Assembly: GCA_963793005.1 (NCBI GenBank)
Contig: CAWBYP010000006.1
Location: 26,785-90,784 of the forward strand
DNA from: an uncultured Gammaproteobacteria bacterium
GTDB taxonomy: Bacteria > Pseudomonadota > Gammaproteobacteria > Steroidobacterales > Steroidobacteraceae
Length of the DNA stretch: 64,000 nt
Direction: 5' to 3'
The notes under the pieces are model-generated. The model had not been told where the DNA came from. It ran no database searches and saw nothing but the letters and a program-made list of their open reading frames with translations. Positions 279 through 48,126 of the stretch are shown here, piece by piece (within the stretch, counting starts at the first letter, position 1; every line of letters begins with the position of its first letter). Position numbers and translations under genes: made by a program.

Positions 279-2075
279 GTGGCGCAATCTGCAGACGTTT
301 TCCTCAGCTACTCGCGCGAAGACAAGACCCGGGTGCTCGATCTCGCGGGCAAGCTGCGGGCCGCCGGCGTAAATCTCTGGATCGACCAGGGCGGGATCGA
401 CGGAGCCGCGCTCTGGGGCGAGTCCATCGTCCGTGCGCTTGAAGGCGCGAAGGTGCTGCTGCTGATGGTGACACCATCGGCGGTCAACTCACACAACGTC
501 GCCAAGGAAGTGATGCTGACAAGCGAGCGCAAGGGCAACATCCTTCCCGTTCATCTCGAACCGACGACGATTCCCCTCGGCCTCAAGTACCCGCTCGCCG
601 GTATCCAGCACATCGAGTTCTACCACGGCGACCCGGACGACAACCTGCAGGCGGTACTTCGCTCGCTCGACTCGCTGGGCGTGAAGATCACGCCGCCAAC
701 TGCGGTCGTCGCACCCGGCGTCGACGCGCAGCCCGGCGCAGCATTCGCCGGACACGCGACGCATCCAGCCGAATCCCTGCCGGAAGGCGGGGCGTTGGCC
801 GTCCTGCCGTTCGACAACATCAGCCCGGATCCGGAGACCGACTATTTCAGCGATGGCCTCACCGAGGAACTGATCGCGAGGCTGTCGCTGGTGAGCGAGA
901 TCAACCTGATCTCGCGCTGGGCATCGATGCAGCACAAGGGACGCGGACAGGATATCCACGCGATCGGCAACGCGCTCGGCGCGCGCTACATCGTCGGCGG
1001 CGGCGTGCGCCGGTTCCAGGACTCGGTGCGGATCACCGTGCAGCTGGTAGACATCGCAACCAACCTGCAGCTCTGGGGAAACACCTACAAGGGCAAGCTC
1101 GACGACATCTTCGACATCCAGGAACAGGTCGCCCAGCAGATCGTCGAGGCGCTGAAGCTGAAGCTCAGCTTCACTGAAAAGCTCTCGCTCACCAAGCGCC
1201 AGACGCTGAACGCCGAGGCCTACGACCTCTACCTGCGGGGCCAGGACCAGCTCTACCGTCTGACCAAGCGCAGCGTCGAGTACGCGATCCAGCTGTTCGA
1301 GAAGGCCATCGAGCTCGATTCGCGCTATGCCTCCGCCTATGCGGGATGTTCGAGCGCCTACGGCCAGATGTACCAGTTGATCGCCCGCGAGGAGCGCTAC
1401 CGGGAACTGGCGCAGGAACTCAGCTTCAAGGCGCTGATGTACGACAACAATCTCTCCGAAGCCTACCGGGCGATGGGCTTGTCGTATTTCCTGTGGGGAA
1501 AGATGGATGAGGCCACGGCCTCGTGCACCAAGGCAGTTGAAATCGATCCCGACGACTTCATCGCCCACTGGACGCTGGGACGGATCTATTTCACGGAAGG
1601 CAGACTCGAGCAGGCACTGAAGCTTTTCCGCAGGGTGGCCGAGATCAAGCCGAGCTTCTACGCGGGGCATCTCGACGTCGCGCAGACGTGCACGGGTCTC
1701 GGGCTGGACGAGGAAGCCGCGGTGGTCAATCGCCGCCTGCTCGAAATCATGCCGAACTACCTGCTGCAGAATCCCGACGATGCACGGGCGCGGCTGATCT
1801 ACGCAAGCAAGCTCGGCCTGGCAGGTCGCAAGGACGAGGCGATCAGCGAAGGCACCAAGGCGCTGGTGTTGAGTCCCGGGGACCCCGTGATGCTCTACAA
1901 CGCCGCCTGCATGTACGTGAGCCTCGGCGAGTCCGAGCGCGCCCTCGACGCACTGCGCCAGGCGGTCGAGTCGGGATATACGAACTTCGGCTGGATGCAG
2001 AACGATCCGGACCTGGTTCCACTACGCGAACACCCGGAATTTGTCGATTTGATGCGCCTGATGAAGCCGGAGTAG
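279..2075 (+). CDS. TIR domain - TolB_N-like (COG5616-type) - TPR repeat protein
   Basis: 598-aa ORF with GTG start. The N-terminus 'DVFLSYSREDKTRVLDLAGKLRAAGVNLWID...LLLMVTPSAVNSHNVAKEV' looks like a TIR_2-type domain. The middle 'LAVLPFDNISPDPETDYFSDGLTEELIARLS...RITVQLVD...LWG' is the module seen in cyclase/regulator-TPR proteins. The C-terminal half contains several TPR-like repeats. Confidence 0.85.
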   Translation: MAQSADVFLSYSREDKTRVLDLAGKLRAAGVNLWIDQGGIDGAALWGESIVRALEGAKVLLLMVTPSAVNSHNVAKEVMLTSERKGNILPVHLEPTTIPLGLKYPLAGIQHIEFYHGDPDDNLQAVLRSLDSLGVKITPPTAVVAPGVDAQPGAAFAGHATHPAESLPEGGALAVLPFDNISPDPETDYFSDGLTEELIARLSLVSEINLISRWASMQHKGRGQDIHAIGNALGARYIVGGGVRRFQDSVRITVQLVDIATNLQLWGNTYKGKLDDIFDIQEQVAQQIVEALKLKLSFTEKLSLTKRQTLNAEAYDLYLRGQDQLYRLTKRSVEYAIQLFEKAIELDSRYASAYAGCSSAYGQMYQLIAREERYRELAQELSFKALMYDNNLSEAYRAMGLSYFLWGKMDEATASCTKAVEIDPDDFIAHWTLGRIYFTEGRLEQALKLFRRVAEIKPSFYAGHLDVAQTCTGLGLDEEAAVVNRRLLEIMPNYLLQNPDDARARLIYASKLGLAGRKDEAISEGTKALVLSPGDPVMLYNAACMYVSLGESERALDALRQAVESGYTNFGWMQNDPDLVPLREHPEFVDLMRLMKPE

Positions 2076-38880: not shown

Positions 38881-38902
38881 TTGAATCCCGTACGCATCAG
38901 TT

Positions 38903-38917
38903 TTTATTGAAAATAAA
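38903..38917. promoter_or_regulatory. perfect palindrome TTTATT-GAA-AATAAA in the AT-rich leader of the TonB-dependent receptor
   Basis: Read directly from the sequence. It lies 23-37 nt upstream of the receptor ATG (38880). Confidence 0.35.
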
Positions 38918-38982
38918 GCGTACCAAAGATTTCCTGCAGGTAAATAGTACTTTTGAATACCGCCAAGCCATGGCCGCAACGG

Positions 38983-41900
38983 CTAGCCGACCAGCACATC
39001 CTCGCGCAGGCGGGCCGTCGCCTCGGAAAGCAGGTACCGCGCCGCGGCATCGCCCTCGTGCGCCCGCAGGACCTGGCCCAGCAGCGCTATGGCCTCCGAG
39101 TACAGCCGGGCCTCGTAGTGCTGTTGCGGCACGCTCGAATGCGGCACGCGTATCGAGCTTGTGCGCGGCCAGGTCCGGCGCATCGAACTCGAATGCTTCG
39201 TGCAGCACCACGGCCTCGTTGCGGCCCTTGACGACAACCCGGCCCAGCGCACGACGCCTGGGCAGCGCGCTCTCCGCATCGGACAGGTTCTCGAGGAAGG
39301 CCTCGCTCACGATCACGGCGCTGCCGTAGGTCTTCGTCATGCCTTCGATGCGCGAGGCCACATTGACCGCGTCGGCAAAGATGTCGCCCTGGCGGCGCTG
39401 CAGTTCGCCGACGATGCCGAGTCGCAGGCGCCCGAGGTGCATGCCGATGCCGATGCGTATCGACGGCTGCCCCTTGCGTTCGCGCTCCAGGTTGAACTGC
39501 GCGAGGCTCGCCATCGTGTCGCGCGCCGCACGGAGCGCATCGTCGGCACCGCCCGCGAACACCGCCATCACGCTGTCGCCGGTGTATCGATCGATGAAGC
39601 CGCCGTTCCTGCGGATCGGCGGTCCTGCAATGGCAAGATAGCTGTTGATGAACGTGAAGTTCTCATCCGGGGTCATGTGCTCCGACAGTGTCGTGAAGTC
39701 GCGAATGTCGGATATGAGCACCGCCGCTTCCATCTCCACGTTGTCGCCGAGCTGTACGTCTATGATGCTGTCGCGCTTCAGGTAGCGCAGGAACTCGTGC
39801 GGGACGTAGTGCGAATAGGCTGAATTGATGCGCACCAGGTTGAGGTGGGTCTTGATGCGCGCGAGCAGTTCGCCCTTGGCAACCGGCTTGGTGATGTAGT
39901 CATTGGCGCCGACCTGCAGTCCCAGTTTCAGGTCCGCCATCTGGGTCCGGGCCGTGACCATAACGACCGGCAACTGCGTCGGCAGGTGCGTCCTGCGGAT
40001 CTCCCGGCAGACCTCGAAACCGGACAGCTTCGGCATCATGACATCGAGCAGCACCAGGTCGACTTTCTCGCCACCGGCCAGCAGCTCGAGCGCACGCATG
40101 CCGTTCTCGGCCTGCAGCACGTCATAGTGCTGCAGCGACAGGTGATTCAGCATCACCTGCTGGTTCACCGGCTCGTCGTCGACCACCAGGATGCGGATGC
40201 GGTCGTCGCTGCTCGCGGGGCCGCCATCATCGTCGATCTGCGGCACTACCGACGCCTGGACCGACAGCGCACGGCCAAGCCGCGGACCGTGCGCGGGCTC
40301 GGGTGCGACCTGCCTCCCGGGTTCCTGCTCCTCCTTCAGGACCGGGTGCGCTTCCTCCGCTTCGCTCGCCGTGGCGGCCGGCAGCACGAAGCTGAATGTC
40401 GACCCCTGCCCGACCCGTGACTCGAGATCGATGCTGCCGCCATGCAACTGCACGAGGTTGCGCGTCACGGCAAGACCGAGCCCGGTGCCGCCGTGAACGC
40501 GCGTGGCTGATTCCTCGACCTGCTCGAATGACTCGAAGATGCGTTCACGGTCCTCGTCGGCTATGCCGGGACCGGTGTCGATGACCTGCACCCTGACCCG
40601 TCCGCCCTCGTCGATGGCCCGCACGCGCACCGAGCCGGCGTCGGTGAACTTGACCGCGTTGCCGATCAGGTTGTGCAGGATCTGCTGCAGCCTGTCCTCG
40701 TCGGCCAGCACGCTGGGCACGCTGTCGTCGACCTCGTTGATGAGCTCGAGCGACTTGACCTCGGCCAGCGGTGCGCTCAGCCGCATGACTACGTCCGCTG
40801 CCACGCGGAGGTCTACTGCCTTCTTGCGCAGGACCAGCTCATGGGTCCTCATCTTGGAGAAATCCAGGATGTCGTTGACCAGCGACGCCAGGCGCTGCCC
40901 GCTGTTGACGATCATCGACAGGTTGCTGGCGGCCGCTTCGCTGATCCTGCCGGCTGCACCGTCCAGCATCGACTCGGCCAGCCCGATGATGCCCTGCAGC
41001 GGGGTACGCAACTCGTGCGAGGTGTTGGCCAGGAACTCGTCCTTGAGCCTGTCCATGCGCCGCAGGCTCTCGGCCACCTCGTGCTGTGCCCGCTCCTTGG
41101 CCTGCTTCATCTCGTTGTAGCGATCCGACAACGCAAAGGAGATCAACACTGTTTCCAGCACGGCTCCCATTTCCATGCCGTGCACGGCAACGAAACTGTT
41201 GTCCACGAATCCATGCTGGCGCGCCGCGGCAAACACGGTCCCGATGCAGTAACCCGCCCACGCGACCAGGTAATAACGCGCCGAGCGCTGGCCGCGCAGC
41301 AGGCACACGACGGCGGTGACCAGGCCGGCGGTCCCGGCGGCTGCCGACACCGCGCCGGTCAGGTGGATTGAAAACTGGAATCCGGTCAGCGCGGACAGCG
41401 GCACTGTCAGCACTGCCAGTGCCATCAGCACGAGGATCGTCTTGTGCAGGCCGGGCGCGTACTGCCTGGCCTGCAGGAAGCGGGTACAGAACGCGAGCCC
41501 GGCGACCAGCGTCACCGCAACGATGACCTGGAAGATCTCCTCCGACCATGGCCGGTAGTCGGGCCACAACCAGCGCGGCGCGTGGCCGCTGAGGCTGGCC
41601 AGGAACAGGCCCGTGGCGGTGATCGAAATGACATACAGCAGGTAGTTCGTGTCGCGCAGCGAAACGAACAGGAACAGGTTGTACAGGCACATGGCCACCA
41701 TGATCCCGAACATGGCGCCGTAGCCCAGGAAGCTGGCCATGCTCGCCTTGTAGAACTGCTGGGCGGTCAGCAGCCTCAGGTCGACCAGCATGCTGCTCTG
41801 GCTCTGGATGCGCAGGTAGTAGGTCGTCACGCGATCCGGTGCCGGCGCGACCCGCAACACGGGCGTGAGCGCATCCAACACATCCGGCGACAGTGAGTGG

Positions 41901-42325
41901 TGGTCGCCGAGCCGGGTCTCCCGCCACTGGCCGCCGGCAGTTTCCTGGTAGACCTGCACGTCGTCCAGCAACGGATCGGTGACCTGCAGCAACCACGCGT
42001 TGTCCTTGACGCTGCGATTGCGCACGTCGAAACGCAGCCACACCGCACCCTTGATGAACCCGAGCGCGATACCGCGCGGGCCGCTGCGGCGGAATGCGTC
42101 TTCGGGGAGTTGCTGGATCTCCGCAAGCGTAGCCTCGCCACTTTCGTCGACGAGGTATTCGAACGTCGGGCGATAACCAGGCCCCTGCTCGTCGCGCAGT
42201 TCGAGAGGCTCGGCGCTCGCCAACGTGGCGAACAGCAGGCCGAACGACAGCAGCGAACCCAGTCGCATTCGGCGAATCGATAGGGTAGCCTCGCCGGCAA
42301 TCAGTTTTCGGTCAGCGGGGGTCAT
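38983..42325 (-). CDS. 7TMR-DISM sensor histidine kinase - receiver - class III adenylate/guanylate cyclase; C-terminal about 50 codons shifted in this assembly
   Basis: The domain order is as follows. 7TMR-DISMED2-like N-terminus plus 7 TM. HisKA 'TSHELRTPL'. HATPase 'GGTGLGLAV'. Receiver 'LVLLDVMMPKLSG'. Cyclase 'VLISDIRDFT', 'DRYTGDSVMAVF' and 'GDIFADAVNVASRIE'. The natural tail 'QQHYEARLYSEAIALLGQVL...REDVLVG*' is in the 38983-39279 ORF frame. A signal-like start 'MRLGSLLSF' at 42268 is possible. Confidence 0.88.
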
Positions 42326-42330
42326 GAGGA

Positions 42331-42831
42331 ATGCTGCAGATAGACGCTTACAAGCTGCTCTTCACGGGCAAGAGCATCATTCTTGGAATGGTGAAGGATG
42401 TCCACGACGACGACTGGTTCAAGCCCTTGCCGGGCCTCGGACGGTCCTTCGACTGGGTGTTCGGCCACTATGCCGCAGTCGAGGACTGGTTCCTGCATCA
42501 TCTCAACGGCGACCCCTACGAGACCTCGAAAGAATGGCAGGACATGTACTGGGCCGATAACAGCGGGCCCGTGGACCCGACCAAGGGAGTCGGCCGGGCC
42601 GGCGTGACCGCAGCATTCGAGAAAACTCGCCAACGGCTGTTCACTGCCCTCAAGTTCGACCTATTTCACCTCAACCGCTTCATCAAGCCGGGCATCTTCC
42701 CGAGCGACGTCAAGACGCGCGGCGACGCCTGGCTGTTCATTTCCGCGCACGCGTACTGGCACGTCGGCGAACTCGAGTCGCTGCGCGGCATGAACGGCTA
42801 TCCCTACAACGGTGGCGGCATCCATCACTGA
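42331..42831 (+). CDS. DinB-superfamily protein
   Basis: 166 aa. The helical-bundle pattern with His residues ('FGHYAAVEDWFLHHL', 'HAYWHVGE') is typical of DinB/YfiT-like proteins. Confidence 0.7.
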   Translation: MLQIDAYKLLFTGKSIILGMVKDVHDDDWFKPLPGLGRSFDWVFGHYAAVEDWFLHHLNGDPYETSKEWQDMYWADNSGPVDPTKGVGRAGVTAAFEKTRQRLFTALKFDLFHLNRFIKPGIFPSDVKTRGDAWLFISAHAYWHVGELESLRGMNGYPYNGGGIHH

Positions 42832-44171
42832 TCGAGTGGTGGAAAGTAACGGTCCACGAGGCCCCGGGAATAGGCGACCGTGTTGCCCACGGTCTCGAAT
42901 CCCAGCAGCGAGCTGTCGTAGAAAGTCTGCTGGAATCCCTGCAACGACTCCAGCTGGTCATAAAAACCCGCGCTGAAGTCGGCCAGGCTCACGTGCGGGA
43001 AATAGCGCCAGCCGTGCTGGCTGTGTTTCTCGACCAGGCGCGCAGGCTTGCCCTTGTAGTCGGGCAGCTTCGCAACCTGGGCCCTGATCCGTTCCTCGAT
43101 CTCGCCCTTGTCGTAGCCTTCCGACGGCGACAGGTTGAAGAAGATCGTCATGTCGCTGTCGTCGTAGATCTTGATGTAGCCGGTATAGTCCAGCATCGGC
43201 GGCAGTGGAATGGTCCCGACCACACCGGCAGGGACCCCTTCCACGCGGCAGGCCGTCGTGACGAACTCCACGTAGCGAACCTTCTCAAGCAGACGGCTCT
43301 CCTGCGCGCTGAGGTCCAGGCCAAGCCCTGAAAGGGTCGTGACGTCCAGCGGGCAGGCCAGGATCAACTGGTCGAACTTCCGGGACGGCCGGTCGCCGGC
43401 GAACTCTATTTCAACCTCGATGACGTTGCCGTCCGCAGCCTGCTTGCGACGAATGGCGCGGATCCCGGCATCGAGCTGGACGTCGACCTCCCTGGCAACC
43501 GCGTCCCACAGCGACTGGAAGCCGTGCTTGAACACGCGCGGCCAGTACTGGACGATACCGGCCACGTGCAGCACGTTGGACAGCCAGTTGCGCAGCCCCT
43601 GGAACTTGACGAAGTAGGCAGCCGGGATCTCGTCGAGTCGGCCGAAGCCCTGCACCTTCATCACGAACAGGATTGTTTCCTGCAGGGCTTCGAGGCGCCG
43701 CTGCTTGAGCCAGCTCGCGAGCGGCTGCAGCAGCTCGGGCGGCGCATTTGCGAAACCCGACCCGGGCTGGGAGAACTTCCTGAACCGCGTGAGCAGCATC
43801 CACGTGTAGCGCAGCGACGCCCACACGACCTGGAGTTTCCCGTAGCCGCCGGATTGCGTGGCCGTCAGCATGTCCATGTAGCGTCGGCTGCCGCGGTCGT
43901 ACACCAGCACGTCCTGGTAGCCCGTGGTCGGCACCTTGAGCGCCGTGGCGATGTCCATCACGTCGCCGTAGCCGGCCAGCATTTCGTGCGCCGCCATGTC
44001 GAACTGCCGCCCCTCGTAGTCGAAGCTCAGGCACTTGCCGCCGACCCGTTCGATCTTCTCGAACACGTGCACATCACGGTAGCCGTTCTGCTTCAGGAAC
44101 CATGCGGCACTCATGCCGGCCGGGCCGGCGCCGATGATGGCGATTCGGGGCTGTTTTTGTTTTCCGGTCAC
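42825..44171 (-). CDS. FAD-dependent oxidoreductase (amine-oxidase / desaturase-like), copy A
   Basis: The dinucleotide fold is 'RIAIIGAGPAGMSAAWFLKQNGYRDVHVFEKIERVGGKC'. A GTG start at 44171 sits 2 nt after the upstream paralogue's TGA. Confidence 0.8.
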   Translation of the reverse strand: MTGKQKQPRIAIIGAGPAGMSAAWFLKQNGYRDVHVFEKIERVGGKCLSFDYEGRQFDMAAHEMLAGYGDVMDIATALKVPTTGYQDVLVYDRGSRRYMDMLTATQSGGYGKLQVVWASLRYTWMLLTRFRKFSQPGSGFANAPPELLQPLASWLKQRRLEALQETILFVMKVQGFGRLDEIPAAYFVKFQGLRNWLSNVLHVAGIVQYWPRVFKHGFQSLWDAVAREVDVQLDAGIRAIRRKQAADGNVIEVEIEFAGDRPSRKFDQLILACPLDVTTLSGLGLDLSAQESRLLEKVRYVEFVTTACRVEGVPAGVVGTIPLPPMLDYTGYIKIYDDSDMTIFFNLSPSEGYDKGEIEERIRAQVAKLPDYKGKPARLVEKHSQHGWRYFPHVSLADFSAGFYDQLESLQGFQQTFYDSSLLGFETVGNTVAYSRGLVDRYFPPLDQ

Positions 44172-44173
44172 GA

Positions 44174-45530
44174 TCAGGCCCTCGCTGCAAAATGGGTCTG
44201 CACCAGGTGGTGCGAATATTCCGCAATGCATTCGACCAGCTCGAAGGCCAGCAGGCCACCGCAATAGAACGTACGGTTCTCGCCCTGCATAGCCTCCAGC
44301 TCACTGTAGAAACCTGCGTCGACCGCAGCGCATGGCACGTGCGGGAAGTAGGCCCAGTCGTCGCTGTTCAATGGCGCCGCATCGGGATCCTGCGCCGCTA
44401 TTTCACCGAGGAACCTGCGGTTGTTGGCCTCGATTTTCTCCCTGCCGATCGTCTCTTCGCGATCGCCCCGTGAATAGATCGAGATGAAGTTGCTCTCCGG
44501 ATACTGGCGCGTCACGACGTGGGGCTCACCCAGCGCGGGTTCCGGCAGCGAGAAAGTGACCGCGGCCACGCGCTCGGTGCCCGGCGCCATGTAGGTCGTG
44601 ACGAAGAACGGGTTGACGTCGACCTGCTCGAACAGCTTCGTTTCCTTGTCACTCAGATCGAGGAACTCGAGCACCTCCGGCAGTTGCGGGCAGGCGAGTA
44701 CCAGGTAGTCGAAGGTCGCCGTCTCGCGGACAGTGATGTCCTGCTCGAGCTGCTGCTCCAGCAGCCGGTACTGGACGTGTATCTGCTCGCCCCGCGTGAT
44801 GCTCACAATCTCCACCCCGGTGAGCACGTCCACCTCGGCCGCCAGCCGCTCGAACATGCGGCCGTAGCCCTGCGTGAACCGCTTCGGCCAGCGGCGCAAC
44901 GGCATGTTGGCGGCGAACATCCCCAGGTTGAGGAACGTCTTTGGGACTCATGTAGGTCAGGGCGTACGCCGCGGCAATGTCATCGAGGTCGCCATAGCCC
45001 ATCAGCGTCAGCGGAATCTCGAACATCTCGCCGAGGCCATCCAGTCGATGTCGGCGCAGCCAGTCGGCAAAGCTTCCCTGCAGTTCCGGACAGTCGCGCA
45101 CGTGGCCGAAGCCCGGCCTGGCGGGCGACAGCAGGCCGCGCATGCGCCAGCGTATGAACAGGAAACGCAGCGACTGCCAGGCCAGCGTGAAAAACGAGGT
45201 GCGGCTCAACACCTCGGCCAGGATCGAGCGCATTTCGCCGGTCTTCACGTTGATCGTGTGCCCGGCCTTCTCGGTGTACATGCCGGCGCCGACATGCGCC
45301 GCAAGCTCACGCACCCGCGTGTATGCGGAGGTAATGTAGTTGGCGCCCAGGTCGAAGGATTGACCGTCCACGGTAAGCGACCGGCACTTGCCGCCGAGCC
45401 GCGGCGACCGCTCCAGCACCTGCACGTGCCTGAAACCAGCCAGTTTCAGGTACCAGGCGGTGCACAGCCCGGCGGCGCCCGCCCCAACGATCACGATGCG
45501 CGCATCGCGCGGAATGCCTGCTGTCTTCAT
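44174..45530 (-). pseudogene. FAD-dependent oxidoreductase, copy B (paralogue of copy A), frame broken at about 44944
   Basis: The N-terminal part (44649-45530 ORF) reads 'RIVIVGAGAAGLCTAWYLKLAGFRHVQVLERSPRLGGKC...AAAYALTYMS'. The C-terminal part (44174-44920 ORF) reads 'MFAANMPLRRWPKRF...'. Removing one C from the coding-strand CCC (plus-strand GGG 44943-44945) gives '...TYMSPKTFLNLGMFAAN...', which is colinear with copy A. Confidence 0.8.
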
Positions 45531-45704: not shown

Positions 45705-47423
45705 ATGACCCCTGACGCCAACAGGCAGGATTCACTACACTTGGCTCCCTCCAACCGGACCGAAGGCCGTGATTTGGTAACCGTCGAGTCCAGATCTGCC
45801 AAGCTCTTTGTAAGCTATGCCTCGGATGATCGCCGGCTGATCGCGCCCCTCGTGGATTTCCTACGCGCCCAGGGCTGGGAGGTCTGGTGGGACCGCCAGC
45901 TGGACGCGGGTGAGGCGTTCGACCGGCGCATCGAGAGAGAACTGGCTGCAGCCGACTGCGTGGTCGTGGTCTGGTCGCGGACGTCCGTCGCCTCCAACTG
46001 GGTGCTGAGCGAAGCGATGGCCGGGTTCGAGTCGAGTCGACTCGTCCCGGTGGCATTGGACGCCCGGCTGTCGATTCCACTGCCCTTCAATCGTGTCCAC
46101 GCCGCCTCGCTGGTGGACTGGACCGGCACTCCGGAGCACCCGGGGCTCGAGGAACTTGCGGAGGGCATCCGAGCCACGATCAGCACGCTCGGCATGCGCG
46201 GCATCCAGGCGCGAGGATCGTCGAGTGAGCACAAGGCGGTGGTCGCGGTGCTGCCCTTCGACGACCTCGATGCGGCCGGAGCAGCGCGGCCCGCCTGTTC
46301 GATTGTCCCGAACAAGCTCATCGCGGCGCTGGGCCATTTCCCGGGGCTGGATACCTTGTCGCGCCGGGCGAGTTTCGACGCCGGGCTCCAGTCGCTGGAG
46401 ATACGCGCCATTGCCCGCGCCCTGCGCGCCGACTTCGTCGTCACGGGCAGCGTTTCGGGCACCGGCAGCGAGATGGTGCTGGGCGTCGAACTCATCGAGG
46501 GCGAAACCGGCAGGCAGACCTGGAGCATGACCGTGACGCCGGACGAATCGGGGGTACTGGAACCTGATACGGCCGCGGCCGAGATTGCCCGGGCCTTGAG
46601 TGGCGAATTCCTGCGACTGCGCCGTGCGTCCGCCCAGGACGGTGCCGCTCGCGGTGACAGCTGGAGCGTGGTCGAAGCCGGCCGACAGACACTGCTGCAA
46701 AGCAGCAGCAACGCAATCGTAGACGCGAAGCTGGAGGCGCAACGTGCGCTCGCCCTTGCCCCCGGAAACGGTCACGCCCACGCCCTGCTCGCTTCCGCGA
46801 TCGCCGAGGAAATCGTCAACGGCTATACCTGCGACCTCGATCTCGCACGCAACGAGGCGCTCAAGGAAGTCGAACGAGCCCTGGTGCTCTGCTCGGACGA
46901 CCCGGTAGTGCTGAAATATGCCGGGCATGTGTACGCGATCTGCGGCGAGCACGAGCAGGGCGAGCGCGTGCTGCGACGGGCGCTCGAGCTCAACCTGTAC
47001 GACGAAGGCACCTACGGCTACCTCGGCTGGGTGCTTGCCCCTTCGACTTCCCCCGTGCACCTCGCCGAGATCAGGACAGTGCTGGACAGGCTGCTGGCAG
47101 GCGCACGCAAGCACCCGGGCAGGCCATTCTGGTTCCTGCATCGATCGGTGGCCCTATCCTGCAGCGGCGACTTCGAAGGCGCACTGGCAGCGGCGCGCGA
47201 CGCAATGAACTTCAGCCCCAGCCTCACGCTGGCGTGGCTGCACGCCGTGAACGCGCTGGCCCAGCTCGGGCGAATCGATGAAGCGCGCGCGCTGGTCAAT
47301 CGATGCCCGCTCGACATCGCGCGCACAGGCGTTTCATGGGCGAACCTGGTCCGGCTGATTTCCAGGGACGAGGCCGCCGCGGAACTTCGCACCGCAGGCC
47401 TCAGGCAACTGGAACTGGCGTGA
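45705..47423 (+). CDS. TIR domain - TolB_N-like - TPR repeat protein (second paralogue)
   Basis: 572 aa. The TIR part is 'KLFVSYASDDRRLIAPLVDFLRAQGWEVWWD...VVVWSRTSVASNWVLSEAMA'. The TolB_N-like opening is 'AVVAVLPFDDLD'. The C-terminal half is TPR-like. The order matches the 279-2075 protein. Confidence 0.85.
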   Translation: MTPDANRQDSLHLAPSNRTEGRDLVTVESRSAKLFVSYASDDRRLIAPLVDFLRAQGWEVWWDRQLDAGEAFDRRIERELAAADCVVVVWSRTSVASNWVLSEAMAGFESSRLVPVALDARLSIPLPFNRVHAASLVDWTGTPEHPGLEELAEGIRATISTLGMRGIQARGSSSEHKAVVAVLPFDDLDAAGAARPACSIVPNKLIAALGHFPGLDTLSRRASFDAGLQSLEIRAIARALRADFVVTGSVSGTGSEMVLGVELIEGETGRQTWSMTVTPDESGVLEPDTAAAEIARALSGEFLRLRRASAQDGAARGDSWSVVEAGRQTLLQSSSNAIVDAKLEAQRALALAPGNGHAHALLASAIAEEIVNGYTCDLDLARNEALKEVERALVLCSDDPVVLKYAGHVYAICGEHEQGERVLRRALELNLYDEGTYGYLGWVLAPSTSPVHLAEIRTVLDRLLAGARKHPGRPFWFLHRSVALSCSGDFEGALAAARDAMNFSPSLTLAWLHAVNALAQLGRIDEARALVNRCPLDIARTGVSWANLVRLISRDEAAAELRTAGLRQLELA

Positions 47424-47481: not shown

Positions 47482-48126
47482 GTGAATGACCGGTTGAAGA
47501 GCGAGTTCATGGCACTGTGGCTGGGCGTTGCCGACGACGAGCCGGCTCACGCCGAGCATGTCTGCCAGGTCCTGCTCGATCGATACGCCGAGCCAGGCAG
47601 GCACTACCACAACCTCGACCACGTCGAGCACTGCCTGGGACAGGCCCGGCTGGTGACCGGGCTGCTGCCCGACTCGAGCGCGCTCGAGCTGGCGATATGG
47701 TTCCACGATAGCGTGTATAACCCGCTGGCAAGGGACAACGAGGCCAGGAGTGCGGCGCTGTTCCGCGAACTCGCCTCGCCGGTGATGACCCCGGCTATCG
47801 AGGATGACGTAGAGCGCCTGGTGCTGGTGACGCAGGCCGGCCAGCTCCCGCAACGGGACGACGAAAGGTACATGGTCGACATCGATCTCTCGAGCTTTGG
47901 ATTGCCATGGGAACCATTCCTGGCGGACAGTCTTGCAGTGCGCGCCGAGCGGCCGCACCTGACCGACGAGCAATACGCGGTGCAGCAGTCGAGGTTCCTC
48001 AATGGCCTGCTGCAGCGCGATGCGGTGTTCACCACCGAGTTCTTCCGCAAGCGCTACGAAGAGGTTGCGCGCTCTAATATCAGCCGGTACCTCGAGGCCA
48101 TTGCCCCGGCACCCCGTGGGCATTGA
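47482..48126 (+). CDS. HD-superfamily metal-dependent phosphohydrolase (COG4339-like)
   Basis: 214 aa. Motifs 'RYAEPGRHYHNLDHVEHCL' and 'AIWFHDSVYNP'. The GTG start is 58 nt after the TIR gene. The antisense 273-aa ORF is rejected. Confidence 0.75.
   Translation: MNDRLKSEFMALWLGVADDEPAHAEHVCQVLLDRYAEPGRHYHNLDHVEHCLGQARLVTGLLPDSSALELAIWFHDSVYNPLARDNEARSAALFRELASPVMTPAIEDDVERLVLVTQAGQLPQRDDERYMVDIDLSSFGLPWEPFLADSLAVRAERPHLTDEQYAVQQSRFLNGLLQRDAVFTTEFFRKRYEEVARSNISRYLEAIAPAPRGH

Follow-up and report, generated by a model that had tools for sequence, protein, structure and literature searches.

A TIR domain joined to a CadC-type sensor scaffold: a candidate one-component signalling protein from an uncultured Steroidobacteraceae bacterium

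What might a bacterial TIR domain do when it is carried by the scaffold of an ordinary signalling protein and has no recognisable partner? To our knowledge, bacterial TIRs of known role belong almost all to conflict systems (Thoeris, CBASS, Pycsar, SPARTA, retron-TIR, Avs and TIR-II) or act as host-directed effectors. The question is raised by a gene near the beginning of a 64,000-nucleotide stretch of DNA from an uncultured member of the Steroidobacteraceae (the window). Here a TIR sits on a scaffold otherwise used for everyday signalling, and the gene behaves as a stable, conserved chromosomal family. The original prediction knew of no characterised function for the TIR–TolB_N-like–TPR architecture, and we likewise found none in the literature searched: an eLife 2020 survey of conflict systems does not treat this architecture, and a search on 'COG5616' returned nothing relevant.

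The gene (copy 1; positions 279..2075, + strand) encodes 598 residues from a GTG start to a TAG stop. The GC3 of the ORF is 0.84, its start residue is common to its orthologues in the alignment, and the gene has an upstream intergenic region of its own. The upstream context was drawn from related loci, and promoter and terminator scans around copy 1 yielded nothing meaningful. The predicted order of domains proved real by Pfam, NCBIfam, remote profiles and predicted structure. The TIR domain (residues 1–135; 279..683, + strand) is delimited by Pfam TIR_2, an AF2 model, Foldseek and profile matches. It is followed by a linker (residues 136–168; 684..782, + strand), placed from pLDDT, identity, omega and hydropathy, which is disordered (pLDDT below 50 at residues 144–167 in the AF2 model), has a mean pairwise identity of 23% and an omega of 0.49 in the copy-1 clade, and contains no TM helix; the highest 19-residue hydropathy anywhere in copy 1 is 1.27. 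Next come an alpha/beta module resembling TolB_N and FlgO (residues 169–296; 783..1166, + strand), assigned from remote profile matches and Foldseek, and an array of about eight TPRs (residues 297–598; 1167..2072, + strand), assigned from TPR models, AF2 and Foldseek. Many TPR models score above threshold over residues ~330–565 in the Pfam/NCBIfam scan, and the array includes an NCBIfam TPR_END_plus cap at residues 539–592 (1893..2054, + strand; 84.8 bits against a cut-off of 32). The scaffold had been described as lacking an NTPase; indeed no NTPase model matches copy 1, including those for the STAND NTPase central domain that marks Avs and NLR-like TIR proteins, and residues 136–296 are accounted for by the linker and the TolB_N-like module.

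Whether the N-terminal domain is a TIR at all is settled by Pfam TIR_2 (PF13676), which matches residues 7–124 with E=6.5e-19 and 69 bits against a gathering score of 28. AF2 models the domain with a pLDDT of about 88–90 (87.8 for the TIR model), and by Foldseek the model has the flavodoxin-like TIR fold, with a TMq of 0.75–0.81 to SPARTA TIR-APAZ and of about 0.70 to the SARM1 TIR. Profile matches take in AbTir, PdTIR, SARM1, Brucella TcpB/BtpA and other bacterial Tcp structures, while PADLOC and NCBIfam models indicate similarity at the domain level to SPARTA-like, SAVED-TIR, retron-TIR and Thoeris TIRs. The acidic residue of 'NVAKEV' that had been put forward as the catalytic Glu is E77 (507..509, + strand). 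It falls at the helix alpha-C Glu position of AbTir E208 and SARM1 E642 and is kept in 74/74 diverse family members and in 74/74 copy-1 clade genes. S10 and D36 align with AbTir S140 and D167 and show little or no variation in the family. Mutation of AbTir E208, S140 or D167 inhibits its NADase activity, and the invariance of E77, S10 and D36 in so diverse a family would be difficult to account for if the domain were not catalytic. Judged from these residues and from the modelled fold, the copy 1 TIR is probably NAD-cleaving. AbTir, SARM1 and SPARTA TIR-APAZ have in common with copy 1 the fold (TM 0.70–0.81), the catalytic Glu, the beta-A Ser and the beta-B Asp, and they differ from it at the alpha-C Trp, where copy 1 has Asn, and in the kind of sensor used for activation. 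The BB-loop region (residues 39–45) is poorly modelled by AF2, and the key Gly may be shifted.

The alignment also indicates that the active site departs in part from the canonical one. Four residues before the Glu, where AbTir has its cyclisation Trp (W204), copy 1 has N73 (495..497, + strand), and Asn is found there in 73/74 copy-1 clade genes. The same position is W in 57/74 and F in 6/74 members of the wider family, and N in 78, W in 6 and H in 2 of the 90 genes in related loci. An aromatic residue here is required for cyclic products (Manik et al.), and copy 1 lacks this feature of the cADPR-isomer-producing TIRs of ThsB and AbTir type. Because the copy-1 clade has Asn in place of the Trp, its TIR is predicted to yield nicotinamide and linear ADP-ribose, consuming NAD+ and making no cADPR-isomer messenger. 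Since W204A inhibits the NADase activity of AbTir, N73 could also mean low or no NAD+ hydrolysis. The TIR would then serve for assembly or as an adaptor, perhaps by pairing with that of a paralogue such as the second copy in the window, or would act on another substrate such as NAD-capped RNA, from which bacterial TIRs can remove nicotinamide according to PMC10937652. Paralogues with different active-site states do coexist in one genome, some of them adjacent. We nevertheless regard this explanation as improbable, given the three invariant residues, the retention of NADase activity by TcpC W240A, which lacks the Trp, and the lack of any sign of interaction between paralogues.

The nature of the rest of the protein bears on what the TIR may answer to. 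The 'TolB_N-like' label given to the middle module is a fair one, the remote matches being consistent though below threshold: residues 169–296 match FlgO in 12/17 members (best 5e-5) and TolB_N in 9/17 (best 8e-5), with further remote matches to LptE, LpoB and CadC_C1, and among PDB sequences the module matches FlgO (0.002), TolB (0.012) and CadC (0.024). The profile of this module does not match the solved TIR-TPR protein PDB 9M0N. In the predicted structure, the non-TIR part of copy 1 has a CadC-type sensor fold, of which the TolB_N/FlgO-like module is the first half; Foldseek aligns it with the CadC periplasmic sensor (3LY7–3LYA) at a TMt of 0.67 and an rmsd of ~4.2 Å over ~305 columns. The NCBIfam CadC model reaches E=4e-13 on copy 1, below its cut-off, the HilA model reaches E=1.5e-9 over residues 167–480, and mod_pep_cyc is also among the sequence-level matches of the sensor.

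CadC is a ToxR-like one-component sensor of pH and cadaverine. Copy 1 resembles it in combining an alpha/beta subdomain with a helical TPR-like bundle, with a weak match in sequence, and in placing the output at the N-terminus and the sensor at the C-terminus. The output of CadC, however, is a winged-helix DNA-binding domain and that of copy 1 a TIR, and the TPR array of copy 1 is much longer. Copy 1 has neither the N-terminal winged helix nor the single TM helix of CadC/ToxR-like receptors; indeed neither window copy, nor any member of their two clades, has a TM helix, so that the sensor of the window copies is expected to be cytoplasmic. A single TM helix is common among distant TIR-bearing relatives, where 35/74 have one between TIR and sensor in the manner of CadC. 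Small ORFs and trypsin-protease genes recur next to TM-anchored members. The family appears to have arisen from membrane-bound receptors whose TIR lay in the cytoplasm and whose sensor lay in the periplasm, with one TM helix between them; both window copies belong to clades without this presumed ancestral helix. Soluble, TM-less versions of the scaffold also exist among non-TIR relatives.

The expectation that cyclases and winged-helix proteins carry the scaffold elsewhere is borne out by the relatives, to which Ser/Thr kinases can be added. The family of CadC-type scaffolds is very large and its heads are Ser/Thr kinase, cyclase or wHTH domains; Pkinase is present in 16/41 close scaffold relatives, and rhizobial cyclases share 33–36% identity with the copy 1 scaffold over ~450 aa. 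HilA/EilA virulence regulators, rhizobial adenylate/guanylate cyclases and Ser/Thr kinases all have a homologous C-terminal scaffold and differ in output. As far as we know, the ligands of these scaffolds are mostly not known, and so little of their function can be transferred to copy 1.

On balance, we favour the reading of copy 1 as a one-component signalling protein, soluble and encoded by a single gene, in which a sensor would gate a TIR NAD+ hydrolase making linear ADPR. The CadC/HilA-type sensor would be tethered through the flexible linker to the N-terminal TIR as its output. A ligand, likeliest a peptide or a protein, which are the usual ligands of TPRs, would bind the sensor and change the self-association of copy 1, so bringing TIR domains together. 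Their assembly would create a composite active site around E77, at which NAD+ would be cleaved. As to the physiological role, we lean slightly towards stress or growth-state signalling over abortive-infection defence. If the TIR is active, copy 1 would be an instance of NAD+ chemistry gated by a sensor and located outside any recognisable defence island.

The surroundings of the gene were inspected for a partner. No SIR2, Macro, STING, SAVED or CD-NTase gene is adjacent to copy 1, in agreement with the original prediction, and PADLOC returned nothing for its neighbours. No ThsA (SIR2/SLOG or Macro) effector gene lies near copy 1 in the window or in 80 related loci, and neither the protein nor its neighbours include a STING, SAVED or cNMP-binding sensor or a neighbouring cyclase, the marks of CBASS and Pycsar. 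The suggested survey of homologue neighbourhoods, made by clustering the flanking genes of the 80 loci, revealed no conserved partner of copy 1, and nor did the Pfam-annotated neighbourhoods of four distant members. Thoeris ThsB, like copy 1, has a TIR with a conserved Glu, but copy 1 has no ThsA partner and lacks the cyclisation residue, and ThsB models stay below threshold on it (PF08937, 14.1 bits against 21.2). Membership in Thoeris, CBASS, Pycsar or Avs was ruled out, the defining partner or domain being absent.

A partner is not required for defence in every TIR system. E. coli TIR-II is a single-protein TIR and TPR anti-phage system (Nat Commun 2024, PMC11350192) that can act without a partner and needs the TIR active site; it is the most widespread TIR system, is present in phages too, and carries an ATPase in about 30% of cases. 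With TIR-II published, a TIR with TPRs and without an NTPase is not unprecedented. Copy 1 could by analogy be a single-gene abortive-infection protein, like TIR-II or the NTPase-less end of an Avs-like spectrum, whose TPR/TolB_N-like sensor would bind a phage protein, whereupon the TIRs would assemble, NAD+ would be depleted and the infected cell would stop growing. We consider this possible but unlikely. Both proteins begin with a TIR and end in TPRs within a single chain, a validated anti-phage design, and they differ in that a TolB_N/CadC-like module is not reported for TIR-II, the comparison being with its published description. The invariant catalytic Glu and the likeness of the TIR to SPARTA-like, SAVED-TIR, retron-TIR and Thoeris TIRs would fit defence, and a non-cyclising hydrolase with N73 would suit a stand-alone depleter of NAD+ that has no downstream effector. 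So would the arrangement of the family, with several copy-1 paralogues per genome, clustered, some adjacent and forming tandem arrays, and so would the TPRs, whose identity falls towards the C-terminus from 84% to 66% to 58% and which are there the most variable folded part, as for a target-binding surface. BcTir/BcTpr (bioRxiv 2023) was set aside, since the protein active in that two-gene operon is of another kind, a glycosidase-TPR protein.

Context and conservation argue against a defence role. By neighbour annotation and PADLOC, neither window copy has defence genes, integrases or transposases around it, and the context of copy 1 is one of signalling and housekeeping genes. Its orthologue is syntenic near PBP and GGDEF-EAL genes in about 10 related genomes, and this kept place is consistent with vertical inheritance. 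A search of 50,697 phage records found no copy of the copy-1 family, and none bearing a TIR turned up among 72,556 plasmid records; TIR-II, by contrast, does occur in phages. In the copy-1 clade every folded domain has an omega of 0.03–0.16, indicating strong purifying selection; the sensor core is better conserved than the TIR, and conservation peaks in the TolB_N/FlgO-like module (85% identity, omega 0.07). The scaffold, moreover, is common to ordinary signalling proteins. The clade is a multi-paralogue Steroidobacteraceae-like family, and since it is conserved, multi-paralogue and located among ordinary genes, copy 1 resembles a signalling protein more closely than it does a mobile anti-phage gene. 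The anti-phage framing implicit in the original prediction is thus not favoured by synteny, paralogues, selection, neighbours or the phage and plasmid records. Domain-wide purifying selection and a chromosomal location are compatible with a defence role as well, and clustered, expanding paralogues are also typical of immune receptor families.

The profile match of the TIR to Brucella TcpB/BtpA and other Tcp structures would be expected of a secreted effector acting against TLR signalling of a eukaryotic host, like TcpB/BtpA or TcpC. That copy 1 is such an effector seems to us highly improbable: no signal peptide and no secretion-associated neighbours were found, its large sensor scaffold is common to cytoplasmic and membrane signalling proteins, and its relatives were recovered in MAGs of Steroidobacteraceae-like bacteria from soil and sediment.

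The second, strongly diverged copy that had been reported 45 kb away has the same architecture (copy 2; 45705..47423, + strand; 572 aa, TIR_2 at 76.6 bits) and is co-linear with copy 1 at 23% identity over ~540 aa. By alignment it keeps both the Trp (W99; 45999..46001, + strand) and the Glu (E103; 46011..46013, + strand). The claim of 'no recognisable partner', which stands for copy 1, does not extend to copy 2. Beginning 58 nt downstream of it is an HD-like phosphohydrolase gene (47482..48126, + strand), recognised by tblastn, motif and JGI name, whose product matches no Pfam or NCBIfam model at threshold. In other genomes, copy-2 orthologues carry a fused HD-like extension at the C-terminus (tblastn, P0139 and P0143), and on this sequence evidence the HD-like gene is the partner of copy 2. 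Such a gene was looked for near copy-1 loci and was absent.

A broader and more doubtful proposal is that the TIRs of this family are ordinary output modules of one-component receptors, swappable with kinase, cyclase or DNA-binding heads, and that they serve a physiology of NAD+-derived messengers, not anti-phage conflict. If this were true, the TM-anchored members would be bacterial receptors whose single TM helix separates a sensor in the periplasm from a TIR in the cytoplasm, a topology analogous to that of Toll-like receptors. Proteins of the copy 2 type, which have the Trp and are paired with an HD phosphohydrolase, would produce a second messenger of the cyclic ADPR type and process it; those of the copy 1 type, with Asn and no partner, would just consume NAD+, the soluble Steroidobacteraceae paralogues having split roles. 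The family holds natural contrasts, between paralogues differing at the cyclisation residue and in the HD partner and between membrane-anchored and soluble forms, and these make a pre-immunity role of TIR domains directly testable. In the 18 fused copy-2 orthologues the HD-like motif RxYHxLxH...WFHD...DxD is invariant.

The open reading frame at 279..2075 (+) (copy 1) is real; with GTG as start and TAG as stop codon it encodes 598 aa, has a third-codon-position GC of 0.84 in a window of 63–67% GC, and shares its start residue with its orthologues. The original prediction read the product as a TIR – TolB_N-like – TPR protein, and this architecture held. Residues 7–124 match TIR_2 in Pfam (E=6.5e-19; a significant 69 bits against a cut-off of 28), many Pfam TPR models exceed threshold from about residue 330 to 565, NCBIfam places the C-terminal cap TPR_END_plus at residues 539–592 (84.8 bits), and the middle module is recognised by remote homology. 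Across residues ~167–480 NCBIfam gives sub-threshold matches to CadC, HilA/EilA and 'peptide modification system cyclase', while PADLOC finds only weak TIR matches in copy 1, at the domain level. The strongly diverged second copy that had been reported lies at 45705..47423 (+); it encodes 572 aa with TIR_2 at a likewise significant 76.6 bits, and aligns co-linearly with copy 1 (23% identity across ~540 residues). Among the fetched orthologues, the one closest to copy 1 (P0087, at L015 10001..11518; 96% identity) is shortened to 505 aa, either by a frameshift or by an assembly error in the MAG.

A profile of residues 169–296 matched FlgO, the TolB N-terminal domain, CadC, LpoB and LptE, weakly but in a mutually consistent manner, so 'TolB_N-like' describes the remote homology fairly. 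The AlphaFold2 model of copy 1, built from an alignment of 74 diverse relatives, has a mean pLDDT of 90.3, with disorder only at the BB-loop region (39–45) and the linker (144–167). Structure searches with the whole model returned TPR proteins and the CadC periplasmic sensor domain (3LY7, 3LY8, 3LY9 and 3LYA), the latter at a TMt of 0.67 and an rmsd of ~4.2 Å over ~305 columns. Taken together, the TolB_N-like module and the first TPRs correspond best to a CadC-type sensor. A model of the TIR only (pLDDT 87.8) aligned with the TIR of SPARTA TIR-APAZ (TMq 0.75–0.81, rmsd 2.6–3.1 Å) and, at about 0.70, with SARM1.

Across 74 family members, in an alignment reaching down to 19% identity with copy 1, W34, D36, V74, E77 and P99 are invariant and F8, S10 and Y11 nearly so. 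Profile-to-PDB alignment sets S10, D36 and E77 on AbTir S140, D167 and E208, and mutating any one of these inhibits AbTir NADase activity. By its alignment on E208, E77 is correctly placed, and the position proposed for the catalytic Glu within 'NVAKEV' is borne out. The surrounding motif in copy 1 is S-H-N-V-A-K-E, against a family consensus of S-x-W-V-x-x-E. Here N73 takes the position of AbTir W204; the position is Asn in 73 of 74 copy-1-clade genes (His in the other), Trp or Phe elsewhere in the family, and Trp in copy 2. Cyclisation of ADPR requires an aromatic residue at this position (Manik et al., bioRxiv 10.1101/2022.05.07.491051), which is found in all cyclic-product TIRs and is less conserved in ADPR-only or inactive ones (same reference); the corresponding TcpC mutant, W240A, retains NADase activity. 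Since the Asn is fixed under selection, the Trp-to-Asn change in the copy-1 clade is not decay. On sequence grounds, the substitution predicts not a generator of cADPR-isomer signals but a linear-ADPR hydrolase or an altered chemistry.

A search with residues 165–598 alone finds 25,369 cluster representatives at E≤1e-30, and many of these contain the module several times in tandem. Proteins of 1,800–2,800 aa with up to nine tandem TolB_N-like plus TPR scaffolds (P0241, P0244, P0247, P0250 and others) may be genuine or may come from merged gene calls. An N-terminal Ser/Thr kinase domain heads 16 of 41 shorter scaffold relatives, and winged-helix (PF00486) or cyclase (PF00211) heads are present among relatives of copy 2. 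As the same scaffold carries kinase, cyclase and winged-helix heads, the TIR occupies the output-domain position on a general sensor scaffold.

Of 74 distant relatives with a TIR, 35 (P0163, P0178, P0180, P0185, P0189, P0195, P0199 and P0202 among them) have a single TM-like segment separating it from the sensor in a hydropathy scan, a topology that they have in common with CadC/ToxR. These relatives are predicted to have a cytoplasmic TIR and a periplasmic sensor, and would by analogy be Toll-like-receptor-like. The same scan found no TM segment in any of 120 copy-1-clade proteins or in any of the 34 TIR-bearing proteins among 38 of the copy-2 clade (top 19-residue hydropathy 1.27 in copy 1, 1.05 in copy 2). 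HilA and many scaffold relatives also lack one, so the cytoplasmic form of the sensor has precedent. Behind two TM-anchored members (L082 7026..8778 and L084 6971..9596) lies in each case a small ORF on the same strand (74 or 85 aa) with no Pfam match, and beyond it come convergent trypsin-family protease genes; ORF and proteases may form a subfamily-specific partner set. A PycTM gene lies ~3 kb upstream of the L084 member.

The best 120 protein matches to copy 1 are 73–95% identical, and the named ones come from Steroidobacteraceae or unclassified Gammaproteobacteria MAGs. Relatives are encoded at 246 places in GTDB species-representative genomes, of which 80 were fetched (65–91% identity). 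Several genomes contribute two loci each, and at nine loci (L011, L016, L021, L034, L046, L057, L062, L064 and L078) 2–3 family genes lie within 10 kb in tandem or divergent arrays, in some of which members with Trp at the cyclisation position adjoin Asn-type members. The same genomes hold a different TIR architecture near family loci, in ~460-aa genes (L042 6641..8023, L067 346..1764 and L069 464..1843, all on the minus strand) with a C-terminal TIR (residues ~315–458) and no TolB_N-like module.

Clustering of the genes flanking the fetched loci revealed none that accompanies the copy-1 family, and PADLOC gave no match in the neighbours of either copy, in agreement with the claim that copy 1 has no recognisable partner. 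Close relatives, and only these, share a PBP (Peptidase_S11) and a PAS-GGDEF-EAL gene nearby; at some loci, that of the window included, a K+ channel gene and a DUF6394 gene lie in between. The intergenic region 5' of the family gene is usually >100 nt, the gene downstream of copy 1 in the window is convergent, and four distant members also sit among ordinary genes. Mean pairwise identity among 74 clade genes is 72% in the TIR, 23% in the linker, 85% in the TolB_N-like module and 84%, 66% and 58% along the TPR array; omega for the same segments, from 72 pairs with ≥85% protein identity, is 0.09, 0.49, 0.07 and, along the array, 0.03, 0.09 and 0.16. The TIR-bearing architecture occurs in none of the phage and plasmid records scanned. 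All 579 plasmid matches start at about residue 120–170 and represent a rhizobial adenylate/guanylate cyclase scaffold (33–36% identity).

Copy 1 is a TIR_2 family member with the predicted catalytic Glu. Assignment to Thoeris, CBASS, Pycsar or Avs was rejected, as each defining partner or domain was sought and none found. Proteins of this architecture are frequent in databases, where they bear generic names, and copy 1 is thus not a new kind of protein; a literature search found no paper treating this layout, consistent with the view that it has no characterised function. The one solved TIR-TPR protein seen, 9M0N, has no recognisable middle module, unlike copy 1.

Copy 1 thus lacks a TM segment, an obligatory partner and the cyclisation residue; its TIR core is intact and is joined by a flexible tether to a CadC-type sensor that is strongly conserved. 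From known TIR enzymology, the active site would form only on TIR–TIR association, which makes control of self-association the most likely task of the sensor; the output would be hydrolysis of NAD+ to ADPR and nicotinamide. A sensor-gated hydrolase has a little better than an even chance of being correct. Within that mechanism, abortive-infection defence is a serious rival to a physiological role. The defence reading draws on TIR-II, which protects E. coli with one TIR+TPR protein (PMC11350192) and which copy 1 resembles in outline by domain layout, and on the paralogue expansion of the family; the other outputs on the scaffold, the pattern of conservation, the genomic context and the absence from mobile elements speak instead for physiological signalling or stress, towards which we lean slightly. 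The broader proposal, that TIR domains serve routinely as outputs of one-component receptors, with membrane forms resembling TLRs and with NAD+-derived signals used outside conflict, seems to us rather unlikely.

The reported lack of a partner does not extend to copy 2. Its 760–800-aa orthologues carry ~210 additional C-terminal residues matching an HD-like gene at 47482..48126 (+), which encodes 214 aa and starts 58 nt after copy 2. R-x-Y-H-x-L-x-H ... W-F-H-D ... D-x-D is invariant in this gene (RHYHNLDH...WFHD...DID) and in 18 domain-carrying orthologues, 15 of which are full-length fusions (at least 15 protein clusters). The JGI annotation of the fusions is 'HD superfamily phosphohydrolase'; the HD-like gene has no significant match in Pfam, NCBIfam or PDB sequences and is absent near every copy-1-clade locus examined. 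Judged from these sequences, gene fusion links copy 2 to a partner. The HD-type partner thus goes with the Trp-keeping paralogue and none with Trp-less copy 1, a correlation only, which a division of labour between the copies would fit.

Upstream of copy 2, a 293-aa ORF at 44649..45530 (−) aligns to no more than the first third of the Amino_oxidase profile (positions 2–147 of 443) and adjoins an intact paralogue (42825..44264, −), which makes a gene fragment or pseudogene the probable reading. The gene at 38897..42325 (−), a few kb from copy 2, encodes a 1142-aa hybrid signalling protein with a 7TMR-DISM sensor, histidine kinase, receiver and class III nucleotide cyclase.
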